This document shows, piece after piece, positions 1 through 8,482 of a stretch of 8,482 bases of DNA (position 1 is the stretch's first letter; each line of letters opens with the position of its first letter). The translations under genes were made by a program, and so were the position numbers. The stretch spans positions 1 to 8,482 of the IMG/VR virus record IMGVR_UViG_2693429728_000003; one strand, written 5' to 3'. Under the pieces are notes generated by a model, which was not told the DNA's origin, searched no databases, and saw only the letters and a list, made by a program, of their open reading frames with translations. Source of the DNA: a virus. Taxonomy: Duplodnaviria; Heunggongvirae; Uroviricota; Caudoviricetes.

Positions 1-1
1 G

Positions 2-610
2 CTGGCAGGCAAGATGGCGCTGTATGCCGACGTTGAGCCAACGGAGTCCCTGGTGGAACTGGTGAAAAAAGGCCAGAAATTATTCACCTCTATGGAAGTC
101 AGCCCGAAGTTTGCTGATACGGGCAAAGCCTACCTGGTCGGCCTGGCTGCCACTGATGATCCCGCCAGTCTGGGTACGGAAATGCTGACATTCAGCGCCA
201 GTGCAGCCCATAACCCGCTGGCAAACCGCAAGCAGAATCCTGCCAATCTTTTTACCGCTGCAGAGGAAACGGTGATCGAACTGGAAGAAATCCAGGGGGA
301 CAAGCCGTCCCTGTTTGCCCGTGTCACGGCGCTGTTTACCAAAAAAGAGCAGTCAGACGATGCCCGGTTCTCTGATGTGCATAAGGCCGTGGAGCTGGTC
401 GCCACTGAGCAGCAAAACCTGAGTGCGCGCACCGAAAAATCCCTGTCTGAACAGGAAGAACGCCTGTCTGAGCTGGAGACTGCTCTGCAGGAGCAGCAAA
501 CCGCCTTTAACGAACTGGTGAATAAGCTGAGTCATGAAGACAGCCGCCAGGACTACCGCCAGCGTGCAACAGGCGGTAACGCCCCCGCTGACACTCTGAC
601 CAATTGCTGA
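2..610 (+). CDS. O: Capsid scaffolding protein gpO, C-terminal part (5' end lies outside the window)
   Basis: Open frame runs from the window edge with no upstream stop; TGA at 608-610. The translated C-terminus (acidic, coiled-coil-like EQEERLSELETALQEQQ) resembles the P2 gpO scaffold as I recall it, and the gene sits immediately upstream of the major capsid gene as in P2. Confidence 0.8.
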   Translation: MAGKMALYADVEPTESLVELVKKGQKLFTSMEVSPKFADTGKAYLVGLAATDDPASLGTEMLTFSASAAHNPLANRKQNPANLFTAAEETVIELEEIQGDKPSLFARVTALFTKKEQSDDARFSDVHKAVELVATEQQNLSARTEKSLSEQEERLSELETALQEQQTAFNELVNKLSHEDSRQDYRQRATGGNAPADTLTNC

Positions 611-626
611 TGGAGCACAAAACCTG

Positions 627-1685
627 ATGAAGAAGAATACCCGCTTTGCTTTTAACGCTTACCTGCAGCAGCTGGCGCGTCTGAACGGTGTGGCAGTTGA
701 AGAACTGTCCAGCAAGTTCACCGTGGAGCCGTCTGTACAGCAGACGCTGGAAGACCAGATCCAGCAGTCCGCCGCTTTCCTGACGCTGATTAACGTCACG
801 CCTGTGACTGAGCAATCCGGTCAACTGCTGGGGCTGGGTGTTGGCAGCACCATTGCCGGAACCACTGATACCACCGCGAAAGAGCGTGAGCCTGTCGATC
901 CGACGCTGATGGTCGATGTGGAATATAAATGCGAGCAGACCAACTTTGACACGGTGCTGACCTACGCGAAGCTGGACCTGTGGGCGAAGTTTCAGGATTT
1001 CCAGGTGCGTATCCGTAACGCCATCGTGAAACGTCAGGCACTGGACCGCATCATGATCGGCTTTAACGGCGTGAAGCGTGCGAAAACCTCCAACCGCAGC
1101 GAAAACCCGCTGCTGCAGGATGTGAACAAAGGCTGGCTGCAGAAAATCCGTGAGGATGCACCGGATCACGTCATGGGCAGCTCCACCACGGGCGGTGAAA
1201 CCACACCGGGTGCGGTGAAAGTCGGGAAAGGTGGCGAATATGCCAACCTGGACGCAGTGGTGATGGATGCCGTCAATGAGCTTATCGACGTGGTCTACCA
1301 GGACGATGACGATCTGGTGGTGATTTGCGGGCGTGAACTGCTGTCTGACAAGTATTTCCCGCTGGTTAACAAAGAGCAGGAAAACAGTGAAAAACTGGCT
1401 GCCGATATGATCATCAGTCAGAAACGCATGGGTGGCTTGCAGGCCGTGCGTGCACCGTTCTTCCCGCCGAATGCACTGCTGATCACCCGTCTGGATAACC
1501 TGTCCATCTACTGGCAGGAAGACACCCGCCGCCGTTCAGTTATCGACAACCCGAAACGTGACCGGATTGAAAACTTTGAATCCGTTAACGAAGCCTATGT
1601 GGTTGAGGACTACCGCTGTGCCGCACTTGTGGAAAACATCCAGATTGGCGACTTCAGCGCCGCCGCAGCAGAAACCGGAGCGTAA
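627..1685 (+). CDS. N: Major capsid protein gpN
   Basis: 352-aa ORF with ATG at 627 and GGAG at 612-615. Strong recalled similarity to P2 gpN along its length (e.g. RFAFNAYLQQ, LDLWAKFQDFQVRIRNAIVKRQ, LAADMIISQKR, YVVEDY). Position between O and M. Confidence 0.93.
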   Translation: MKKNTRFAFNAYLQQLARLNGVAVEELSSKFTVEPSVQQTLEDQIQQSAAFLTLINVTPVTEQSGQLLGLGVGSTIAGTTDTTAKEREPVDPTLMVDVEYKCEQTNFDTVLTYAKLDLWAKFQDFQVRIRNAIVKRQALDRIMIGFNGVKRAKTSNRSENPLLQDVNKGWLQKIREDAPDHVMGSSTTGGETTPGAVKVGKGGEYANLDAVVMDAVNELIDVVYQDDDDLVVICGRELLSDKYFPLVNKEQENSEKLAADMIISQKRMGGLQAVRAPFFPPNALLITRLDNLSIYWQEDTRRRSVIDNPKRDRIENFESVNEAYVVEDYRCAALVENIQIGDFSAAAAETGA

Positions 1686-1688
1686 TCC

Positions 1689-2339
1689 ATGAGCCTGAGT
1701 CCCGCACGGCAGCATCGCCTGCGCGTTCAGGCTGAACAGGCCGCCCGCGAGGGCGGCAGTGTTCGCCACGCGTCGGGCTATGACCTGATGCTGCTGCAAC
1801 TGGCGGAAGACCGCCGCCGTCTCAAGGGTGTTCAGTCCACGGTCAAAAAAGCGGAAATCAAGGTGGAGCTGCTGCCGAAGTACGCCGCCTGGGCAGAGGG
1901 CGTCCTGGCTGCCGGAGGCACTCAACAGGATGACGTGCTGATGTACGTGATGCTGTGGCGCATTGATGCCGGAGATTATGCCGGGGCGCTGGAGATCGGA
2001 TGTCATGCCCTGCGTCATGGCTGGGTGATGCCACTGGGTAACCGCAATGTGCAGACCGTGCTGGCAGAGGAAATGGCAGACGCGGCGCAGAGCGCAATGC
2101 TTGCCGCCACCGGCTTTGATGCCGATCTGTTGCTGCAGACGCTGGAGCTGACAGACGGTCTGGATATGCCGGACCAGTCACGGGCGCGTCTGCATAAAGC
2201 GATTGGCGCTGTCCTGAGTGAAAGCAATCCGGCTTCCGCCCTTAACCATCTCAACCATGCGTTGCAGCTCGATCCCCGCTGTGGCGTGAAAAAAGACAAA
2301 CAGCAGCTGGAGCGCAGACTGCGCAATGACAGCCGCTGA
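1689..2339 (+). CDS. M: Terminase small (endonuclease) subunit gpM
   Basis: 216-aa ORF starting 4 nt after the N stop. Recalled similarity to P2 gpM (LLPKY, QDDVLMYVMLWRIDAGDYAGALEIG, LELTDGLDMPD, GVKKD). Synteny N-M-L. Confidence 0.87.
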   Translation: MSLSPARQHRLRVQAEQAAREGGSVRHASGYDLMLLQLAEDRRRLKGVQSTVKKAEIKVELLPKYAAWAEGVLAAGGTQQDDVLMYVMLWRIDAGDYAGALEIGCHALRHGWVMPLGNRNVQTVLAEEMADAAQSAMLAATGFDADLLLQTLELTDGLDMPDQSRARLHKAIGAVLSESNPASALNHLNHALQLDPRCGVKKDKQQLERRLRNDSR

Positions 2340-2344
2340 CAGAA

Positions 2345-2369
2345 CGTGCCCCCGCGCACGGGCGGCACG
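2345..2369 (+). other. GC-rich stem-loop in the M-L intergenic region
   Basis: cgtgcc(2345-2350)/ggcacg(2364-2369) outer stem and cccg(2351-2354)/cggg(2359-2362) inner stem around a 4-nt loop, with one bulged C. It is not followed by a U-tract, so not a canonical intrinsic terminator. Confidence 0.3.
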
Positions 2370-2434
2370 GGGTGGCGAAAGGCACAGCCTCATCAAAACC
2401 CCGTCCACCGCCCTCTATTTCAGGAGAAAGCAGC

Positions 2435-2899
2435 ATGAAGTTTGTTGCGCCAGAACAGGCACCGGAACAGGCGGAAATCATCAGAAATACACCGTTCTGG
2501 CCTGATGTGGACCTGTCGGAGTTTCGCAGCGTGATGCGCACTGACGGCACGGTGACGCAGCCGCGTTTAAAGCAGGTTGCGCTGTCGGCAATTTCGGAGG
2601 TCAACGCAGAGCTGTATGAGTTTCGCAGACGCCAGCAGATGCTGGGGTATGCCTCGCTGGCAGAGGTTCCGGCGGAACAGCTGGACGGGAAAAGTGAGCG
2701 CATTCAGCACTATTTCAACGCGGTTTACTGCTGGGCACGCGCCATGCTCAACGAACGATACCAGGACTATGACGCCACGGCATCCGGTGTGAAGCGAGGC
2801 GAGGAACTGGCGGAATCCAGCGGTGATTTGTGGCGTGACGCCCGCTGGGCCATCAGCCGGGTGCAGGATGCGCCGCACTGTACAGTGGAGCTTATCTGA
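2435..2899 (+). CDS. L: Head completion/stabilisation protein gpL
   Basis: ATG at 2435 preceded by AGGAG (2422-2426) at 8-nt spacing; the longer GTG-initiated frame from 2372 has no comparable RBS. Product resembles P2 gpL (NTPFWPD, NAELYEF, DLWRDARWAISRVQ). Stop TGA 2897-2899 overlaps the next start (ATGA). Confidence 0.85.
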   Translation: MKFVAPEQAPEQAEIIRNTPFWPDVDLSEFRSVMRTDGTVTQPRLKQVALSAISEVNAELYEFRRRQQMLGYASLAEVPAEQLDGKSERIQHYFNAVYCWARAMLNERYQDYDATASGVKRGEELAESSGDLWRDARWAISRVQDAPHCTVELI

Positions 2900-3102
2900 T
2901 GAAAGTGCGTGCGCATCAGTATGACACGGTGGACGCGCTTTGCTGGCGTCATTACGGGCGCACGCAGGGTGTCACGGAGCAGGTACTGAAGGCAAATCCG
3001 GGGCTTGCCGAATATGGCCCCTTTTTACCTCACGGGCTGCAGGTGGAGCTGCCGGACATTCCGACCACCACCACCGTGCAGACCGTCCAGCTATGGGACT
3101 GA
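2899..3102 (+). CDS. X: Tail protein gpX (small LysM-like tail component)
   Basis: 67-aa ORF coupled to L by an ATGA overlap. Recalled similarity to P2 gpX (DTVDALCWRHYGRT, ANPGLAE, LPHGLQVELPD). Confidence 0.85.
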   Translation: MKVRAHQYDTVDALCWRHYGRTQGVTEQVLKANPGLAEYGPFLPHGLQVELPDIPTTTTVQTVQLWD

Positions 3103-3105
3103 ATT

Positions 3106-3321
3106 ATGACGCTTGAGCGAATCAGCGCCTTTATCACGTATTGCATCGCCGTCGTGCTGGCCTGGCTGGGCGATTTGTCCATCAAGGATGCCTCAACGCT
3201 GGGCGGCCTGATGATTGGTGTGCTGATGCTGGCTATCAACTGGTACTACAAACACAAAGCCTACCAGCTTCTGCGCGACGGGCAGATCTCGCGGGAGGAC
3301 TATGAATCCATCAATCGTTAA
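3106..3321 (+). CDS. Holin, class II topology (two predicted TMDs), possible pinholin
   Basis: 71-aa product with two hydrophobic segments (ISAFITYCIAVVLAWLG and LGGLMIGVLMLAINWYY, the second containing a GxxxG motif) and a charged C-terminal tail. It lies immediately upstream of, and overlaps by 20 nt, the endolysin gene, at the position of P2 Y. Confidence 0.72.
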   Translation: MTLERISAFITYCIAVVLAWLGDLSIKDASTLGGLMIGVLMLAINWYYKHKAYQLLRDGQISREDYESINR

Positions 3322-3814
3322 ACGCTGCCTTGTCGGGGCCGTGCTGGCTATTGCTGCCACGCTGCCGGGTTTTCAGCAGCTTCACACCTCCGTGGAAGGG
3401 CTGAAACTGATTGCCGATTACGAAGGTTGTCGTCTGCAGCCGTATCAGTGCAGCGCGGGTGTCTGGACCGACGGCATTGGTAATACGTCGGGCGTCATTC
3501 CCGGCAAAACCATTACGGAGCGACAGGCAGCAGAAGGGCTGATCTCCAACGTGCTGCGTGTGGAGCGGGCGCTGGAAAGGTGTGTGAAGCAACAGCCGCC
3601 GCAGAAGGTGTATGACGCGGCGGTGTCGTTTGCCTTCAACGTGGGTACGGGCAATGCCTGCAGTTCCACGCTGGTGAAATTGCTCAATCAGCGGCGCTGG
3701 GCGGATGCGTGCCGACAGTTGCCGCGCTGGGTTTATGTAAAAGGTGTGTTTAATCAGGGGCTGGATAACCGCCGTGCGCGGGAGATGGCCTGGTGTTTAC
3801 AGGGAGCAAACTGA
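3302..3814 (+). CDS. SAR endolysin (T4/P1 lysozyme family, glycoside hydrolase 24-like)
   Basis: 170-aa product. N-terminal weakly hydrophobic Gly/Ala-rich segment (CLVGAVLAIAATLPGF) typical of a signal-anchor-release domain. Catalytic signature E41-x8-C50-x5-T56 (YEGCRLQPYQCSAGVWTDG) plus Cys9 and Cys43, matching the P1 Lyz arrangement. GGAGG at 3294-3298 before ATG 3302. Confidence 0.85.
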   Translation: MNPSIVKRCLVGAVLAIAATLPGFQQLHTSVEGLKLIADYEGCRLQPYQCSAGVWTDGIGNTSGVIPGKTITERQAAEGLISNVLRVERALERCVKQQPPQKVYDAAVSFAFNVGTGNACSSTLVKLLNQRRWADACRQLPRWVYVKGVFNQGLDNRRAREMAWCLQGAN

Positions 3815-3815
3815 A

Positions 3816-4193
3816 ATGAAAAAGAAATTAATCAGCGGACTGTTTCTGATGTTATGGATGGCGCTGTTAATCGCAGCAATTGTGTATCCGCAGGGGATTT
3901 TTCCGGTACTGGAAGCGTCCGGCGTTTGGGTAGCCTGTTTGCTGACATGGGCGGTAATTCCGGTAGCACTGGCTGCGTTAATTAAGAATGGCCCGCTCTG
4001 GCAGGAGTTAAGGGCATCTTTGCTGAAGACAATTACCCGAAAAGAAAACGTATTTACCAGTTGGGTGATGCGATTGCTGATTGTTGTAAGTCTCGCCTGG
4101 ACGGGGTGGGCTATTACCCTGGTCTTTTATCTACTGACCGTTATTGCCTTCTGGATCACCCGTAATCAGATGGCGCAACAGGTAGCCGCATGA
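3816..4193 (+). CDS. lysA: LysA-like polytopic membrane protein (lysis timing/regulation)
   Basis: ATG at 3816 with GGGAG about 9 nt upstream; 125 aa with about 4 predicted TM helices. Located between the endolysin and spanin genes as P2 lysA. The track ORF from 3744 overlaps the endolysin and lacks an RBS. Confidence 0.62.
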   Translation: MKKKLISGLFLMLWMALLIAAIVYPQGIFPVLEASGVWVACLLTWAVIPVALAALIKNGPLWQELRASLLKTITRKENVFTSWVMRLLIVVSLAWTGWAITLVFYLLTVIAFWITRNQMAQQVAA

Positions 4194-4618
4194 ACCGGTT
4201 GCTGCTGGTTGTGCTGGCGTTATTACTGGCGGCGCTGGGCTGGCAGACGTGGCGGATGGCTGATGCCAGCCAGACCATTAGCACGCAGGCAGACGAGCTG
4301 CAGAGCAAAAGCCAGGCACTGGCAAAGAGCAACAGCCAGCTTATCAGCCTGTCCATTCTGACTGAAACCAATAACCGGGAGCAGGCGCGGCTCTATGCCG
4401 AAGCAGAACAGACCAGCGCGCTGCTGAGACAACGACAACACCGGATCGAGGAACTGAAACGTGAGAACGAGGATTTACGCCGCTGGGCTGATACTCCTTT
4501 GCCTGCTGACATTATCCGGCTGCGGGAACGTCCGACGCTCACCGGAGGTGCAGCTTACCGTCAGTGGTTGTCCGCGAGTGACGCCGTGTCGGCTGGATCA
4601 GGCAGCGCCGCGCACTAA
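4190..4618 (+). CDS. lysB: LysB-like inner-membrane spanin (Rz equivalent)
   Basis: ATGA overlap with lysA. 142-aa product with one N-terminal TM helix (LLLVVLALLLAALGW) followed by a long charged, helical periplasmic region (ELQSKSQALAKSNSQL, RIEELKRENEDLRRW), the typical i-spanin architecture. Confidence 0.72.
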   Translation: MNRLLLVVLALLLAALGWQTWRMADASQTISTQADELQSKSQALAKSNSQLISLSILTETNNREQARLYAEAEQTSALLRQRQHRIEELKRENEDLRRWADTPLPADIIRLRERPTLTGGAAYRQWLSASDAVSAGSGSAAH

Positions 4619-4751
4619 CGGTGATCTGAACGCGTTGCTGGATGAAACGGAGGCCGCCTGGGCGGTCTGTGCAGACAAAGTGGACATGATTATTGCGTGT
4701 CAGGAGCGAAACAGTGAACAAACCACAATCCCTGCGCCACGCCCTCAATAA
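4461..4751 (+). CDS. lysC: LysC-like outer-membrane lipoprotein spanin (Rz1 equivalent)
   Basis: +1-frame ORF starting inside lysB. GTG at 4461 preceded by GAGGA (4448-4452) at 8-nt spacing. Signal peptide with lipobox LSGC (Cys21) and a proline-rich C-terminus (TIPAPRPQ). It overlaps the 3' part of lysB and extends past it (overlapped rather than fully embedded). Confidence 0.7.
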   Translation: MRTRIYAAGLILLCLLTLSGCGNVRRSPEVQLTVSGCPRVTPCRLDQAAPRTNGDLNALLDETEAAWAVCADKVDMIIACQERNSEQTTIPAPRPQ

Positions 4752-5145
4752 AGCGGTGCCTTATGTCCGCAATAACCCGGACAAACTGCATCTGTTTGTG
4801 GATAACGGTTCGCTGGTTGCCACGGGGGCCAGCTCCATGTCGTGGGAGTACCGTTACACCCTGAACGCGGTGATTGAGGATTTCAGCGGCGACCAGAATC
4901 TGCTGATGGCCCCGGTTTTGCTGTGGCTGCGGGATAACCAGCCCGATGCCATCAATAACCCGGCGTTACGGGAAAAGTTATTCACCTTTGAGGTGGATAT
5001 TCTGCGCAATGATGTCTGTGATATCAGCCTGAACCTGCAACTGACGGAGCGTGTGCTGGTCAGCACTGACGGCAGTGTGTCGAGCGTTGAAGCGATAACG
5101 GAACCCGATGAACCTGAAGAAATGTGGACGGTGAAACGTGGCTGA
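4714..5145 (+). CDS. R: Tail completion protein gpR
   Basis: Recalled similarity to P2 gpR (LHLFVDNGS, RYTLNAVIEDFSGD, PVLLWLRDNQPD, SLNLQLTERVLVS). Preferred start is GTG 4714, preceded by AGGAG (4702-4706) at 7-nt spacing; the track start at 4693 is a TTG without an RBS. Confidence 0.83.
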   Translation: MNKPQSLRHALNKAVPYVRNNPDKLHLFVDNGSLVATGASSMSWEYRYTLNAVIEDFSGDQNLLMAPVLLWLRDNQPDAINNPALREKLFTFEVDILRNDVCDISLNLQLTERVLVSTDGSVSSVEAITEPDEPEEMWTVKRG

Positions 5146-5581
5146 ATTGCAGAAAGTGGACGACTGGCTGAGTGCCTTACTGGCGAATCTGGAGCCAGCT
5201 GCAAGAAGTCGCATGATGCGCCAACTGGCACAGGAGCTGCGCCGGACACAGCAGCAAAACATCAGGATGCAGCGCAATCCAGATGGCAGCAGCTATGAAC
5301 CTCGACGGGTAACAGCACGCAGTAAAAAGGGGCGCATCAAACGTCAGATGTTTGCAAAGCTGCGCACCACAAAATACCTGAAAACTGCAGCTAGCGCCGA
5401 TTCTGCCAGCGTGCAGTTTGAAGGTAAGGTGCAGCACATTGCCCGTGTTCACCATTACGGCCTGCGTGATCGCGTCAGTCGAAAAGGTATTTATACCATC
5501 TATGCGAAAAGGCAGTTATTAGGTTTTAATGTCCAATCTATTGAGTTAATTGAAAGAATGTTCATTAAAAACCTAACTTGA
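5138..5581 (+). CDS. S: Tail completion protein gpS
   Basis: 147-aa ORF overlapping the R stop by 8 nt, GTG start with GGTG 4 nt upstream. Recalled similarity to P2 gpS (DDWLSALLANLEPAAR, QNIRMQRNPDGSSYEPR, IARVHHYGLRDRVSR). The last ~25 codons lie in AT-rich DNA (see findings). Confidence 0.83.
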   Translation: MAELQKVDDWLSALLANLEPAARSRMMRQLAQELRRTQQQNIRMQRNPDGSSYEPRRVTARSKKGRIKRQMFAKLRTTKYLKTAASADSASVQFEGKVQHIARVHHYGLRDRVSRKGIYTIYAKRQLLGFNVQSIELIERMFIKNLT

Positions 5582-5584
5582 TTT

Positions 5585-6604
5585 TTATTTGTTTTCAATT
5601 GAGTTAGATATAGATAGGAATGTGTCCCCTATTTCTATAGATAGTTGTTTAATTAAATTCATGAAAATTAAATTCTCTTCGTTGCAGTCATTTTTCAGTA
5701 GACAGCACGTTGATTGAGTAAGACTAAGGGCTGTAGCATGTGCAGGGTCAACTAATCCGAAATTACTTGGACCTATGTTGATGACGTTCTTCAGGTGATG
5801 GGGTAGTGACAAGCTATTAGTGATTGTTTTTATATTTACATGGATGTTTTGGCATGCCCATTTAAAATATGGGCGCATGTGATCTAATTTAACTTCTTTT
5901 TCAATTGATTTAAAGCTAGCTTTGTGTTTCTTATCAGTTAAAAATGGTGTGGCCCAACCATATTGCGAATCAAAACTTCTGCCATATGTTTTAATGGCTT
6001 TATCGAACAAGTCTGTTAATTCTCTGGCCTCTTCATTACTGGGCCCTTTCTCTTGAAGCCTGCTTTCATACTTTTTATGAGACATCATTAGATAATAGCT
6101 ATCATAAATTTCATGTGCTAAAAATATTTCTGAGCATTTAGGACCATGCTTGTCGATGAAATGTAGTGTTACATTTGTTTCATGCAGTGCTCTCCATCTT
6201 GCATGGGCTGCGTCAGGAAATCCATTTTTTAATAGACATAAAATCTCGTTAGAAATTGCACATGCCTTTGCGTGTAATCTAATTAGTAATTGCAAATGGT
6301 TGTTTGTGTCGGTGTCTTTATCTTGTTGTAAGCTTGTACTATATTTAGAACCTTGATTAATACATAACTCTAACAACAACTCTAATAATCCAAAACCATC
6401 TCTCCAAATATTAATATGTCTTTTTATGAAATTTTGATGTTCTTGTTCATTTTGGGCCAGTAATTCTGCTTTTTTTTCTTTAAATTCCAATATGTATTCA
6501 TTTGCTTTGAAGTCTATGAACTCCCAGTATAGCTTTTCAAAATTTTCTCTGGTTGCATCGGGAAGACTGTTTTTATTTGAGCTTAACCATTCTTTAAAAT
6601 CCAT
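5585..6604 (-). CDS. Hypothetical protein encoded in the AT-rich S-V island; candidate moron (possible defense or superinfection-exclusion function)
   Basis: Single uninterrupted 339-aa reverse-strand ORF that fills the AT-rich island. Start ATG (reverse complement of 6602-6604) preceded by AGGGGG about 6 nt upstream on the minus strand. No TM segments or Walker motif; predicted largely helical. Contains an R-x4-H motif (RWRALH, aa 136-141). I recognise no family from sequence alone. Confidence 0.78.
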   Translation of the reverse strand: MDFKEWLSSNKNSLPDATRENFEKLYWEFIDFKANEYILEFKEKKAELLAQNEQEHQNFIKRHINIWRDGFGLLELLLELCINQGSKYSTSLQQDKDTDTNNHLQLLIRLHAKACAISNEILCLLKNGFPDAAHARWRALHETNVTLHFIDKHGPKCSEIFLAHEIYDSYYLMMSHKKYESRLQEKGPSNEEARELTDLFDKAIKTYGRSFDSQYGWATPFLTDKKHKASFKSIEKEVKLDHMRPYFKWACQNIHVNIKTITNSLSLPHHLKNVINIGPSNFGLVDPAHATALSLTQSTCCLLKNDCNEENLIFMNLIKQLSIEIGDTFLSISNSIENK

Positions 6605-6618
6605 TGTGTTCCCCTATT

Positions 6619-6636
6619 TGTACCATGTTTTATACA
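6619..6636 (+). promoter_or_regulatory. TGT-N12-ACA dyad, candidate Ogr/Delta-type activator site of the V late promoter
   Basis: Exact TGT(6619-6621)-N12-ACA(6634-6636) in the 78-bp gap upstream of V, where P2 places late promoter PV. P2-family late promoters carry such a dyad centred near -55. Geometry is imperfect: centre 6627.5 would put the TSS at or just inside the annotated V start. Confidence 0.3.
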
Positions 6637-6650
6637 ACGAACTGTAAGCG

Positions 6651-6679
6651 ATTATATGGTTTTTTTCATTCATATTTAA
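6651..6679 (-). promoter_or_regulatory. Candidate sigma70-type promoter for the island ORF
   Basis: On the minus strand, a perfect TATAAT (reverse complement of 6651-6656) with TTAAAT 17 nt upstream (reverse complement of 6674-6679). Predicted TSS near 6644, giving a ~40-nt leader to the ATG at 6604. Confidence 0.35.
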
Positions 6680-6682
6680 TAT

Positions 6683-7261
6683 ATGGACAAAAATCTAACA
6701 GAAATCATGCGCCTTATCACCAACCTGATCCGCACTGGTGTAGTCACCGAAGTGGACCGGGAGAACTGGCTTTGCCGGGTGAAAACGGGCGAGCTTGAAA
6801 CTAACTGGATCAGTTGGCTGACGCTGCGTGCCGGGAATGCCAGGACATGGTGGCGACCATCGGAAGGTGAACAGGTGGTGCTGCTGAGTCTGGGCGGCAA
6901 TCTGGAAACCGCCTTTGCGTTACCCGCCATCTATTCGAATCAGTTCGCGCCACCGTCGACGTCGGCGGACGCCTGCGTGACAGAACATCCTGACGGTGGC
7001 TGGTTTGAATACGAACCCGCCACCGGGCGCTGGTATGTCAGGGGCATCAAATCAATGGTCATTGAGGCCGCTGACAACATCACCATGAAAACCAGTGAGT
7101 TTGTACTGGAGGCTGACCGCACGCGCATTAACAGTGAAGTGGTGATCAATGGTGGCGTTACCCAGGGCGGCGGAGCGATGAGTTCTAACGGGATCGTGGT
7201 TGATGCGCATCAGCATACTGGCGTCCTGAAAGGCGGCGATACAACCGGAGGCCCGGTATGA
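6683..7261 (+). CDS. V: Baseplate spike/assembly protein gpV
   Basis: 192-aa ORF with recalled similarity to P2 gpV (NLIRTGVVTEVD, RAGNARTWWRPSEGEQV, ETAFALPAIYS, glycine-rich C-terminus HQHTGV). No clear SD before ATG 6683; in-frame ATG at 6707 is an alternative start. Confidence 0.85.
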   Translation: MDKNLTEIMRLITNLIRTGVVTEVDRENWLCRVKTGELETNWISWLTLRAGNARTWWRPSEGEQVVLLSLGGNLETAFALPAIYSNQFAPPSTSADACVTEHPDGGWFEYEPATGRWYVRGIKSMVIEAADNITMKTSEFVLEADRTRINSEVVINGGVTQGGGAMSSNGIVVDAHQHTGVLKGGDTTGGPV

Positions 7262-7617
7262 CGCTTTATATCGGGATGAACAATACCAGCGGCAAAGTCA
7301 TTACTGATATTGACCATCTGCGCCAGTCGGTGCGGGACATTCTGCTGACACCGCAGGGTAGCCGTATTGCCCGTCGTGAATATGGTTCCCTGCTGTCGGC
7401 ACTGATAGACCAGCCACAAAATCCGGCATTACGTCTGCAGGTCATGTCGGCAGTGTATGTGGCGCTTAGTCGTTGGGAGCCACGGCTGACGCTGGATTCC
7501 ATCACCATCAACAGCAATTTTGACGGTTCAATGATGGTGGAGCTGACCGGGCGGCGTAATAACGGTGTGCCTGTTTCCCTTTCCGTATCAACAGGAGCAG
7601 AGAATGGCAGTGATTGA
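7258..7617 (+). CDS. W: Baseplate protein gpW (GPW/gp25 family)
   Basis: 119-aa ORF coupled to V by an ATGA overlap. Recalled similarity to P2 gpW (SVRDILLTPQGSRIARREYGS, LSRWEPRL). Confidence 0.87.
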   Translation: MTLYIGMNNTSGKVITDIDHLRQSVRDILLTPQGSRIARREYGSLLSALIDQPQNPALRLQVMSAVYVALSRWEPRLTLDSITINSNFDGSMMVELTGRRNNGVPVSLSVSTGAENGSD

Positions 7618-8482
7618 TCTTTCGCAGTTGCCTGCACCGCAGATTGTGGATGTGCCGGACTTTGAGACGCTGCTTGCCGAACGCAAGGCAGAATTTGTGG
7701 CACTTCATCCGAAAGATGAGCAGGAAGCAGTGATGCGTACGCTGGAACTTGAATCTGAACCCGTCACCAAATTGTTGCAGGAGAACGCTTACCGTGAGTT
7801 GCTTCTGCGCCAGCGCATTAACGAAGCCGCGCAGGCTGTGATGGTGGCTTACGCGATGGGCGGCGATCTTGACCAGCTCGCTGCCAACTACAACGTGAAA
7901 CGCCTGACGGTGACGCCTGCTGATAATGACGCTGTGCCACCCGTTGCGGCTGTGATGGAAAGCGATGAAGCGTTACGCCTGCGTGTGCCTGCAGCCTTTG
8001 AAGGGCTTTCAGTTGCGGGGCCAACTGCAGCTTATGAATTTCATGCCCGAAGCGCCGACGGTCGGGTGGCGGATGCCAGTGCAACCAGCCCGGCACCTGC
8101 AGAGGTGGTGCTGACTGTCCTTAGCCGCGAAGGCAATGGAACTGCAGAAAAAGACCTGCTGGACGTGGTGGAAAAAGCTCTGAACAGTGAGAACGTCCGC
8201 CCAGTGGCTGACCGTCTTACGGTTCGCAGTGCAGAAATCATCCCGTATCGCGTGGAAGCCACCATTTTTCTATATCCGGGACCGGAAGCAGAGCCGGTAA
8301 TGGCAGCGGCAAAAGCCAGCCTGCAGAAGTACATCGCCAGTCAGACGCGTCTTGGTCGGGATATTCGCCGTAGCGCCATCTTTGCCGCCCTGCATGTTGA
8401 GGGGGTGCAGCGTGTGGAGCTGGCTTCTCCTCTGGCGGATGTGGTCCTGAACAAAACACAGGCGGCATCATGTACGCAGTGG
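7604..8482 (+). CDS. J: Baseplate assembly protein gpJ, N-terminal part (3' end lies outside the window)
   Basis: Frame opens at ATG 7604 (AGGAG at 7593-7597) and stays open to the window end; translation MAVIDLSQLPAPQIVDVPDFE ... GRDIRRSAIFAALHVEGVQRVELASPLADVVLN strongly resembles P2 gpJ. It is absent from the ORF track, presumably because no stop falls in the window. Confidence 0.87.
   Translation, partial: MAVIDLSQLPAPQIVDVPDFETLLAERKAEFVALHPKDEQEAVMRTLELESEPVTKLLQENAYRELLLRQRINEAAQAVMVAYAMGGDLDQLAANYNVKRLTVTPADNDAVPPVAAVMESDEALRLRVPAAFEGLSVAGPTAAYEFHARSADGRVADASATSPAPAEVVLTVLSREGNGTAEKDLLDVVEKALNSENVRPVADRLTVRSAEIIPYRVEATIFLYPGPEAEPVMAAAKASLQKYIASQTRLGRDIRRSAIFAALHVEGVQRVELASPLADVVLNKTQAASCTQW

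Follow-up and report, generated by a model that had tools for sequence, protein, structure and literature searches.

How can a gene foreign to its surroundings sit between two late operons of a phage when the site offers essentially no intergenic DNA to receive it, and where does such an insertion begin and end? The question is raised by an 8,482-nucleotide (nt) stretch of a tailed phage (Caudoviricetes; IMG/VR record IMGVR_UViG_2693429728_000003, positions 1 to 8,482), which we refer to in its entirety as the window. In this P2-like prophage an adenine- and thymine-rich (AT-rich) open reading frame (ORF) on the minus strand, hereafter the cargo, separates gene S, which we take to be the last gene of the O operon, from gene V, which we take to be the first gene of the V operon. 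The initial annotation of the window proposed that the boundary of this island lies inside the 3' end of S, the C-terminal coding segment having been replaced with island-derived sequence. Here we map both junctions and follow them through related phages. We consider it highly probable that the S–V interval carries a swappable cassette whose ends lie inside the flanking genes, which re-encodes the C-terminal segment (tail) of the S protein (gpS) together with the late-promoter region of the V operon (pV), and which is exchanged as a unit.

Results

The left junction lies inside gene S

Gene S occupies positions 5138-5581 on the plus strand, from a GTG start to a TGA stop at 5579-5581, and converges upon the cargo ORF, whose stop codon lies at 5585-5587; as initially annotated, the two stop codons are 3 nt apart. 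The fractional guanine-plus-cytosine (GC) content of S is 0.55 in its first 350 nt and 0.28 in the remaining 94 nt, and 200-nt windows fall from 0.515 (5301-5500) to 0.265 (5501-5700). The AT-rich 3' end on a GC-rich gene body that had been noted from the letters alone is thus borne out quantitatively, the GC content of the 94-nt tail at 5488-5581 being lower than that of all 7089 backbone windows of the same size (minimum 0.38, mean 0.57, standard deviation 0.048).

Homology changes at the same place. Megablast and blastn alignments to three cargo-free sequences, namely CP019275, Klebsiella phage 4LV2017 and Fels-2, stop at S nt 350, which is window position 5487 and falls within codon 117, between SRKG and IYTIY of the protein. 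Compared with the cargo-free allele L001, the S body is 93% identical across 350 nt and homology then ends. The GC step and the homology break therefore coincide at 5487/5488 and divide S into a backbone-type body (5138-5487, codons 1-117), which belongs to the tail completion and virion morphogenesis protein gpS (PF05069, Phage_tail_S, E=3.3e-37), and a cassette-borne tail (5488-5581), which comprises the last 30 codons plus the stop and encodes ..IYTIYAKRQLLGFNVQSIELIERMFIKNLT*. The intragenic position given in the initial annotation stands; its start at 5505, about 25 codons from the end, does not, because homology places the shift at 5488, 18 nt farther upstream and about 31 codons from the end.

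The cassette-borne tail is a recoded gpS C-terminus

Although the tail has no megablast-level similarity to canonical tails, the protein that it encodes is recognizably gpS. Residues 3-146 of the 147-residue protein align to positions 2-147 of the 148-position Phage_tail_S profile (E=3.3e-37). Placed in register, the window tail and the canonical tail share 9 of 30 residues (Y, A, R, LLG, N, M and L), a level matched by only 1 of 100,000 shuffles. Among 50 gpS proteins, R125, L127, L128 and G129 are invariant and Y122 is nearly so, with the last 17 or so positions being variable. Every cargo allele retains the canonical gpS length (147-155 amino acids), whereas a random stretch of 30 codons at a GC content of 0.29 would remain open with a chance of only about 8%, as calculated from base composition. 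The pooled ratio of nonsynonymous to synonymous substitution rates (dN/dS) reaches 0.23 in the tail, as against 0.10 in the S body, such that the tail is under purifying selection, somewhat relaxed. At the invariant residues the codons TTA, AGA and GGA occur in cargo alleles and never in cargo-free alleles, and GC content at third codon positions is 0.50 and 0.75, respectively. Taken together, the profile alignment, the in-register identity, the retained length, the dN/dS and the synonymous codon choices identify the tail as a recoded homolog rather than the product of chance read-through. The initial annotation was consequently right in that the C-terminal segment was replaced together with the island; the replacement is, however, a homologous gpS C-terminus written in AT-rich codons and not arbitrary island DNA.

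In an AlphaFold model of gpS, residues 132-146 form a predicted helix with a per-residue confidence score (pLDDT) of 86-94, within a model that is poor as a whole (pLDDT 65; predicted template modelling score, pTM, 0.29). A sequence search for solved structures matching gpS found none. A 41-amino-acid tail query against a set of 5.8 billion proteins returned a single weak match, leaving the origin of the tail untraced. The S gene of phage R18C is likewise a mosaic with an AT-rich tail (GC 0.34), and R18C has been described as a viable P2-like phage (PMC6823313). The recoded tail and the pV activator site described below are presumably functional in the window prophage.

Other rearrangements are found at this end of S. 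In two alleles (L009 and L010) IS1 lies inside the AT-rich S tail, at a position equivalent to about 5534 of the window, and gpS is cut to 133 amino acids; in L010 a deletion follows IS1 and extends to the tail-fibre, invertase and sheath genes. In L008, IS1 lies just beyond the S stop, within the 3' end of the cargo (equivalent to about 5604). The AT-rich edge of the cassette thus seems to attract IS1. Several database gpS proteins (clusters P0162, P0239, P0151, P0125 and P0220) are fused or frameshifted directly after ..SRKGPE.. or ..YAKR.., including fusions of S to a Tail_P2_I domain and to a PF05954 domain, which suggests that deletions and rearrangements recur at the same point in S.

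The right junction lies at the start of gene V

Homology to the cargo-free allele L001 resumes at 6692, which is codon 4 of gene V (6683-7261, plus strand), the gene for the baseplate spike (PF04717 and PF18946). From codon 4 onward V is backbone; its first three codons (6683-6691, plus strand) are of cassette type and encode MDK in place of MNA. An MDKN or MDRN start is common to the DUF5677-bearing alleles L018, L088 and L090. Because homology resumes only at codon 4 of V, the cassette replaces the entire pV promoter region as well. This cassette-specific region (6605-6682) is 100% identical in L007, a prophage on another IMG/VR contig, and shows no similarity to the 68-nt S–V spacer of cargo-free relatives.

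One element of the promoter region is nevertheless held in place. A TGT-N12-ACA dyad, TGTACCATGTTTTATACA, lies at 6619-6636 on the plus strand, that is, at -64 to -47 from the V ATG, and is presumed to be the binding site of an Ogr-family late activator at pV. In 19 of 19 alleles of the lineage examined the dyad lies at -63 to -65 from the V ATG, the remainder of the interval from -80 to -1 being allele-specific; P2, W-phi and R18C do not match its N12 spacing pattern. In cargo-free relatives the dyad likewise lies at -64, with 4 nt between it and the S stop. In the GenBank record of P2, an activator binding site is annotated for pV, and V-operon transcription is marked as starting on the first base of V. 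With transcription starting at the V ATG, the dyad is centred near -55, as expected for late promoters of the Ogr type. The same annotation, combined with the break at the V ATG, places the right boundary of the cassette at the start of the transcribed region and makes the untranscribed promoter cassette-specific. A transcription start on the first base of V would also imply a leaderless V messenger RNA.

The geometry of the interval offers a reason for this arrangement. The distance from the cargo ATG to the V ATG is 78 nt in the window and 24-157 nt across alleles with antisense cargo, so short that the promoter and leader of the cargo must overlap pV on the opposite strand. This overlap likely explains why the pV region is cassette-specific. 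A candidate -10 element for the cargo, TATAAT, which matches the consensus perfectly, lies at 6651-6656 on the minus strand, 46 nt upstream of the cargo ATG and accompanied by a weak -35 element. Hexamers resembling a -10 element are present on the cargo strand in 27 of 35 alleles, as expected by chance in AT-rich DNA and hence weak evidence.

The interval between the junctions was exchanged recently

Comparison of the window with L007 reveals a nearly identical block between diverged flanks. Mismatches number 21 in 350 nt of S body, none in the 94-nt S tail, 3 in 1020 nt of cargo, none in the 78-nt pV region and 30 in the 579 nt of V (94.8% identity). Counted over longer intervals, there are 48 mismatches in the 1200 nt to the left, 3 in the block at 5488-6691 (1204 nt) and 58 in the 1200 nt to the right (Fisher p=1.6e-15). 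The tail is 100% identical in L007, L008 and L010, while the S bodies are 93-94% identical. These comparisons indicate that the interval from the S tail to the 5' end of V has passed from one diverged backbone to another in the recent past, through crossovers located in S and V. On the left, the last mismatch to L007 is at 5462 and heterology to cargo-free relatives begins at 5488, placing the crossover of the latest exchange within 5463-5488; on the right, the first mismatch after the block is at 6739, placing the other crossover within 6692-6738.

Tail type follows cargo across related phages

GenBank phages, IMG/VR and assemblies together provided 173 S-to-V loci. Defining an allele as a distinct combination of tail sequence and spacer length, and counting loci that have both S and V, these loci comprise 51 alleles. 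In the fourteen that are cargo-free, the S–V spacer measures 68-72 nt, the tail is canonical (..PEVRYAERRLLGVNDDVEAMTRDMILQWLAG or a slight variant of it) and its GC content is 0.52-0.70. The other 37 carry cargo, with an S–V spacer of 541-2232 nt and a median tail GC content of 0.39 (range 0.27-0.62), and each cargo type has its own divergent, mostly AT-rich tail. Tail GC content differs between cargo-free and cargo-bearing alleles (Mann-Whitney p=1.7e-7), and that of the S body does not (p=0.48).

The junctions were located in each cargo allele by change-point mapping against the nearest cargo-free relative. For 36 of the 37, this places the left break within S; codons 111-137 contain most of the left breaks, which cluster at codons 114-117 (after HHYGLRDRVSRKG) and 125-130 (at RRLLG). 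These estimates are approximate where a close cargo-free relative is lacking. The right break is no more than 1 nt from the V ATG in 24 of the 37 and between -14 and +18 in the rest. When 36 alleles are aligned on their own breaks, mean GC content in successive 24-nt bins falls from 0.58 to 0.40, 0.36 and 0.31; composition and homology therefore change at the same point.

Among alleles with homologous cargo, tail identity tracks cargo identity and not S-body identity. L011 and L060 are 96% identical in the S body and 93% in V, in contrast to 56% in the tail, 54% in the cargo and 58% in the pV region. For L004 and L133 the corresponding values are 86% for the S body, 87% for the tail, 91% for the cargo, 95% for the pV region and 82% for V. 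The four DUF5677 alleles have tails that are 53-61% identical, cargo that is 61-64% identical and S bodies that are 73-85% identical. The comparison proposed with the initial annotation, of gpS tails with and without cargo, thus finds C-terminal divergence that tracks cargo type across the 51 alleles. The cargo-free relatives do not share the window tail, their own being different and GC-rich (0.55-0.69 in the relatives first compared). Together with the homology break and the block shared with L007, the survey supports a recombination breakpoint within S and a C-terminal segment inherited with the island.

In five alleles the convergent cargo ORF runs into the 3' end of S: the overlap is 58 nt in L026, 22 nt in L085 and 5 nt each in L104, L113 and L120, such that one stretch of DNA encodes both C-termini on opposite strands.

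The cargo gene and its counterparts

The island ORF (5585-6604, minus strand) encodes a 339-amino-acid protein with a DUF5677 domain (PF18928, E=1.8e-28) that corresponds to phrog_27456, a family with no function assigned in PHROG. Its GC content is about 0.33, compared with 0.57 for the backbone, and cargo GC content is 0.31-0.38 in every allele. A PADLOC scan of the protein at E<=0.1 yields no match, and a search of the protein against viral contigs returns only its own contig. This exact gene is present in 4 of 5426 complete E. coli genomes. Homologs with 52-54% identity occupy the same S–V site in Salmonella and Enterobacter prophages, and others with 44-49% identity (L093-L098 and L181-L184) occupy different sites of accessory type: in a lambdoid Klebsiella prophage after the replication genes, in a P4-like satellite downstream of the primase and beside a SEC-C protein, in Providencia beside an integrase and a deaminase-domain protein, and in Photobacterium as a solitary gene between housekeeping genes. 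A DUF5677 gene assayed in E. faecalis was not among the active defence candidates. Judged by these surroundings, the cargo is probably an accessory or defence-type gene, and a defence or accessory role for its product is plausible.

At least 26 unrelated cargo families occupy the S–V site. Apart from DUF5677, they include a PARIS-like pair, a KAP NTPase, an FRG protein, DUF6216, DUF2971 and an endonuclease/exonuclease/phosphatase-family protein. The PARIS-like pair, DUF4435 with AAA_15/AAA_21, lies in L020, where the gap between S and V is 2232 nt; L112 carries a KAP-family NTPase of 630 amino acids, and L147 the endonuclease/exonuclease/phosphatase-family protein. One allele (L185, on a contig of Erwiniaceae bacterium BAC15a-03b) holds two stacked cargo genes, DUF2971 beside S and DUF5677 beside V. 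Its S tail ends ..LINWIAGE, like the ..INWL.. tails of the single-DUF2971 alleles L104 and L113, and its V start is of the MNAQ type, the other four DUF5677 alleles having the MDKN type.

Genomic setting of the window

By its ORFs and Pfam matches, the window is the late region of a P2-like prophage of the Elveevirus/Felsduovirus type. The nearest records are Elveevirus and Felsduovirus members of the Peduoviridae, with which it is syntenic, and E. coli prophages. Gene order is scaffold, capsid, small terminase, head completion, X, holin, lysozyme, lysis accessory, R (4693-5145), S, the antisense ORF, V, W and J; R, S, V and W were identified through Pfam, the DUF5677 ORF sitting between S and V. 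An Rfam search of the window gave no match. A second and milder dip in GC content, 0.49-0.50 as against about 0.58, spans 3701-4200 and covers an ORF of 149 amino acids (3744-4193) at the position of a lysis accessory (lysA-like) gene, which has no Pfam match and appears hydrophobic by eye. This dip may mark another exchangeable segment.

Discussion

A proposed cassette that re-encodes both of its neighbours

In the explanation that we favour, the cassette extends from approximately 5488 to 6691 and comprises the AT-rich S tail, the antisense DUF5677 cargo, its own pV region and the first three codons of V. Its S tail would supply the conserved Y-x-x-R-x-LLG motif and, after it, an amphipathic helix at the C-terminus, and its version of pV would keep the activator dyad in place at some 64 nt (63-65) upstream of the V ATG. 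In cargo-free phages only 4 nt separate the S stop from the pV dyad, so there is no neutral DNA into which a gene could be inserted; a cassette that re-encodes both neighbouring functions could be exchanged as a unit without harm to tail assembly or late transcription. Spread between related phages would proceed by homologous recombination, with one crossover in the conserved body of S and the other at the start of V or slightly inside it, and the conserved motifs would supply the patches of homology at which crossovers cluster. Since the bases adjoining heterologous cargo are rarely separated from it, the S tail and the pV region would diverge along with the cargo and share both its history and its AT-richness. 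The AT-richness itself probably reflects a long separate history of the cassette pool.

Several observations weigh against a general form of this explanation. Of the two clearest exceptions, RE-2010 has a tail that is divergent yet GC-rich (0.62). In P2, the other, the left boundary is extragenic: direct comparison puts the break 2 nt after the S stop, and P2 has an annotated terminator of its own, whereas change-point mapping wrongly assigns its break to codon 76. The alleles of the survey, selected from IMG/VR and GenBank phages for the similarity of their S genes, are phylogenetically non-independent. In view of P2 and RE-2010, the intragenic boundary is typical of this lineage and not universal.

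Alternative explanations for the AT-rich tail

Could the AT-rich tail have arisen without such a cassette? An illegitimate insertion might have destroyed the 3' end of S, the frame then running by chance into island DNA to give a new C-terminus or a truncated, dispensable one. The abrupt junction and the lack, beyond it, of megablast-level similarity to canonical tails fit such an event, but they sit poorly with the in-register identities in 9 of 30 residues, including Y, R, LLG and N (1 in 100,000 shuffles), with a Pfam alignment that continues to the end of the protein, and with a canonical length in all 37 cargo alleles where a random frame would stay open in about 8% of cases; given also the tail dN/dS of 0.23 and the lack of any remnant of the old tail or direct repeat at the other boundary, chance fusion is extremely improbable. 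Alternatively, the tail could be the ordinary S 3' end of a wholly AT-rich P2-like donor, for example from a low-GC host, acquired through one crossover. This reading accommodates a tail that is genuinely homologous to gpS and whose conserved residues are written in AT-rich synonymous codons, and DUF5677 relatives do exist in low-GC genera such as Photobacterium and Providencia; moreover, our search was biased to enterobacterial S sequences and could have missed AT-rich donors. Nonetheless, in all 173 S genes recovered the body is GC-rich (0.55-0.66), AT-richness being limited to the tail next to the cargo. Even in R18C, where the exchange begins at about codon 27, the imported S body has a GC content of 0.52 and only the tail falls to 0.34, and the tail of L130 closely resembles that of L114, a cargo-free allele of the same lineage, and is AT-enriched in roughly its last 15 codons only. 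As for the DUF5677 genes of Photobacterium and Providencia, they lie outside P2-like S–V sites. On balance, we regard an AT-rich donor as unlikely. Two further candidates were rejected. Site-specific integration is contradicted by an island whose sole ORF is the DUF5677 gene and which lacks a recombinase, a remnant of a canonical tail and flanking direct repeats. Against diversifying selection acting on gpS regardless of cargo stand the near invariance of cargo-free tails and a tail dN/dS below 1.

A different possibility is that the tail is shaped by a second function of its DNA, as the 3' untranslated region or terminator of the cargo, the terminator of the O operon or a nucleation site for H-NS, or that it is a variant matched to the cargo, for example for self-immunity. 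With the two stop codons 3 nt apart, any cargo terminator must lie within S. An AU-rich imperfect hairpin (5519-5576, inverted repeat I1) does occupy the last S codons and is followed by a T-rich run at 5582-5597; its predicted fold has a z score of -2.75 on the minus strand and -0.81 on the plus strand, and it is possible, if speculative, that it acts as a weak bidirectional terminator. The overlap of cargo ORF and S tail by 5-58 nt in five alleles, and the clear hairpin and T-run terminators that lie between S and cargo in spacer-bearing alleles (such as L011, L041 and L015), are compatible with a second function. However, mean z scores in cargo alleles (-0.67 on the plus strand and -0.73 on the minus strand) are no stronger than in cargo-free alleles, the hairpin is not conserved across alleles, and a scan of the S/cargo junction for a terminator consensus was negative. 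Alleles whose cargo lies on the plus strand (L123, L130 and L174) also have AT-rich tails (0.34, 0.39 and 0.30, respectively), and a shared coupling of cargo proteins to gpS is implausible given how diverse the cargo families are (PARIS-like, KAP NTPase, FRG and several DUFs among them). A second function as the force that shaped the tail is accordingly quite unlikely. A stricter form, in which the C-terminal helix of gpS and the cargo are functionally matched or the tail DNA is indispensable for regulating the cargo transcript, appears very unlikely. In the matched version, cargo proteins, competing P2-like phages or P4 satellites would act on the gpS tail, and the cassette would carry a compatible or immune allele; if this were true, the terminus of a structural gene would become part of an accessory or defence module.

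Relation to known mobile loci

The cassette with intragenic ends that we favour has partial parallels elsewhere. Lambdoid morons and mosaic junctions, as studied by Hendrix, Juhala, Clark and colleagues, sit between genes, the moron having its own promoter and terminator. They resemble the window in their sharp transitions between backbone and foreign DNA, in the AT-rich, independently transcribed gene at an operon junction and in homologous recombination in the flanks, but here the cassette re-encodes the C-terminus of an essential neighbour and the neighbouring promoter. Elements such as e14 and phage 21, which integrate in icd, and many integrators in tRNA genes supply a substitute 3' end of the target gene. 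As in the window, the incoming DNA carries a diverged but functional alternative 3' end that leaves the target gene intact. Unlike those integrators, the window has no integrase or recombinase and neither a displaced 3' end nor an att-like repeat, and its crossovers occur at variable positions.

P2-like phages have three variable regions that have long been recognized, namely the TO region, Z/fun and the S–V (orf30) site (PMC3091744), at the last of which R18C has been noted to hold a different ORF (PMC6823313). P2 orf30 and the window share the position between S and V, AT-rich, non-essential and usually antisense cargo that differs among relatives (PMC3091744; PMC6823313), and a pV activator site retained just upstream of V. 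They differ in that P2 has the same S sequence as cargo-free W-phi, stop codon included, the P2 island beginning 2 nt later and an annotated terminator occupying the 71-nt spacer, whereas the island of the window begins 94 nt inside S, with stop codons 3 nt apart and no terminator found. The window is thus a variant architecture of the known P2 orf30 variable locus.

Surveys of P2-like hotspots describe the rapid swapping of unrelated, often defence-related cargo between core genes, including late genes, through recombination processes that, as they state, have yet to be worked out, and rank the S–V site as a minor hotspot (PMC9122126; Moura de Sousa et al. 2026, bioRxiv 10.64898/2026.02.27.708500). 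Our results agree with these surveys in the nearly identical cargo on diverged backbones and in the occurrence of a PARIS-like pair, a KAP NTPase and FRG at this site. Those surveys define sites between core genes; our mapping puts one junction within the coding sequence of a core structural gene and the other where transcription of the next operon starts. We found no description of a co-inherited S tail in the searchable literature, although older work, for example that of Nilsson and Haggard-Ljungquist, may hold one.

Implications

For this single window the result is confirmatory. Its wider value is that the junctions can be read directly, one at conserved motifs within an essential tail gene and the other at the transcription start of the next operon, and that replacement copies carried on the cassette account for the presence of cargo where there is virtually no intergenic DNA. 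The S and V junctions also constitute practical homology arms for engineering cargo into P2-like phages. Hotspot boundaries that are placed at gene borders miss part of the mobile unit, and much of the diversity of gpS, for which 3602 clusters at 90% identity were returned, may be hitchhiking rather than adaptation.

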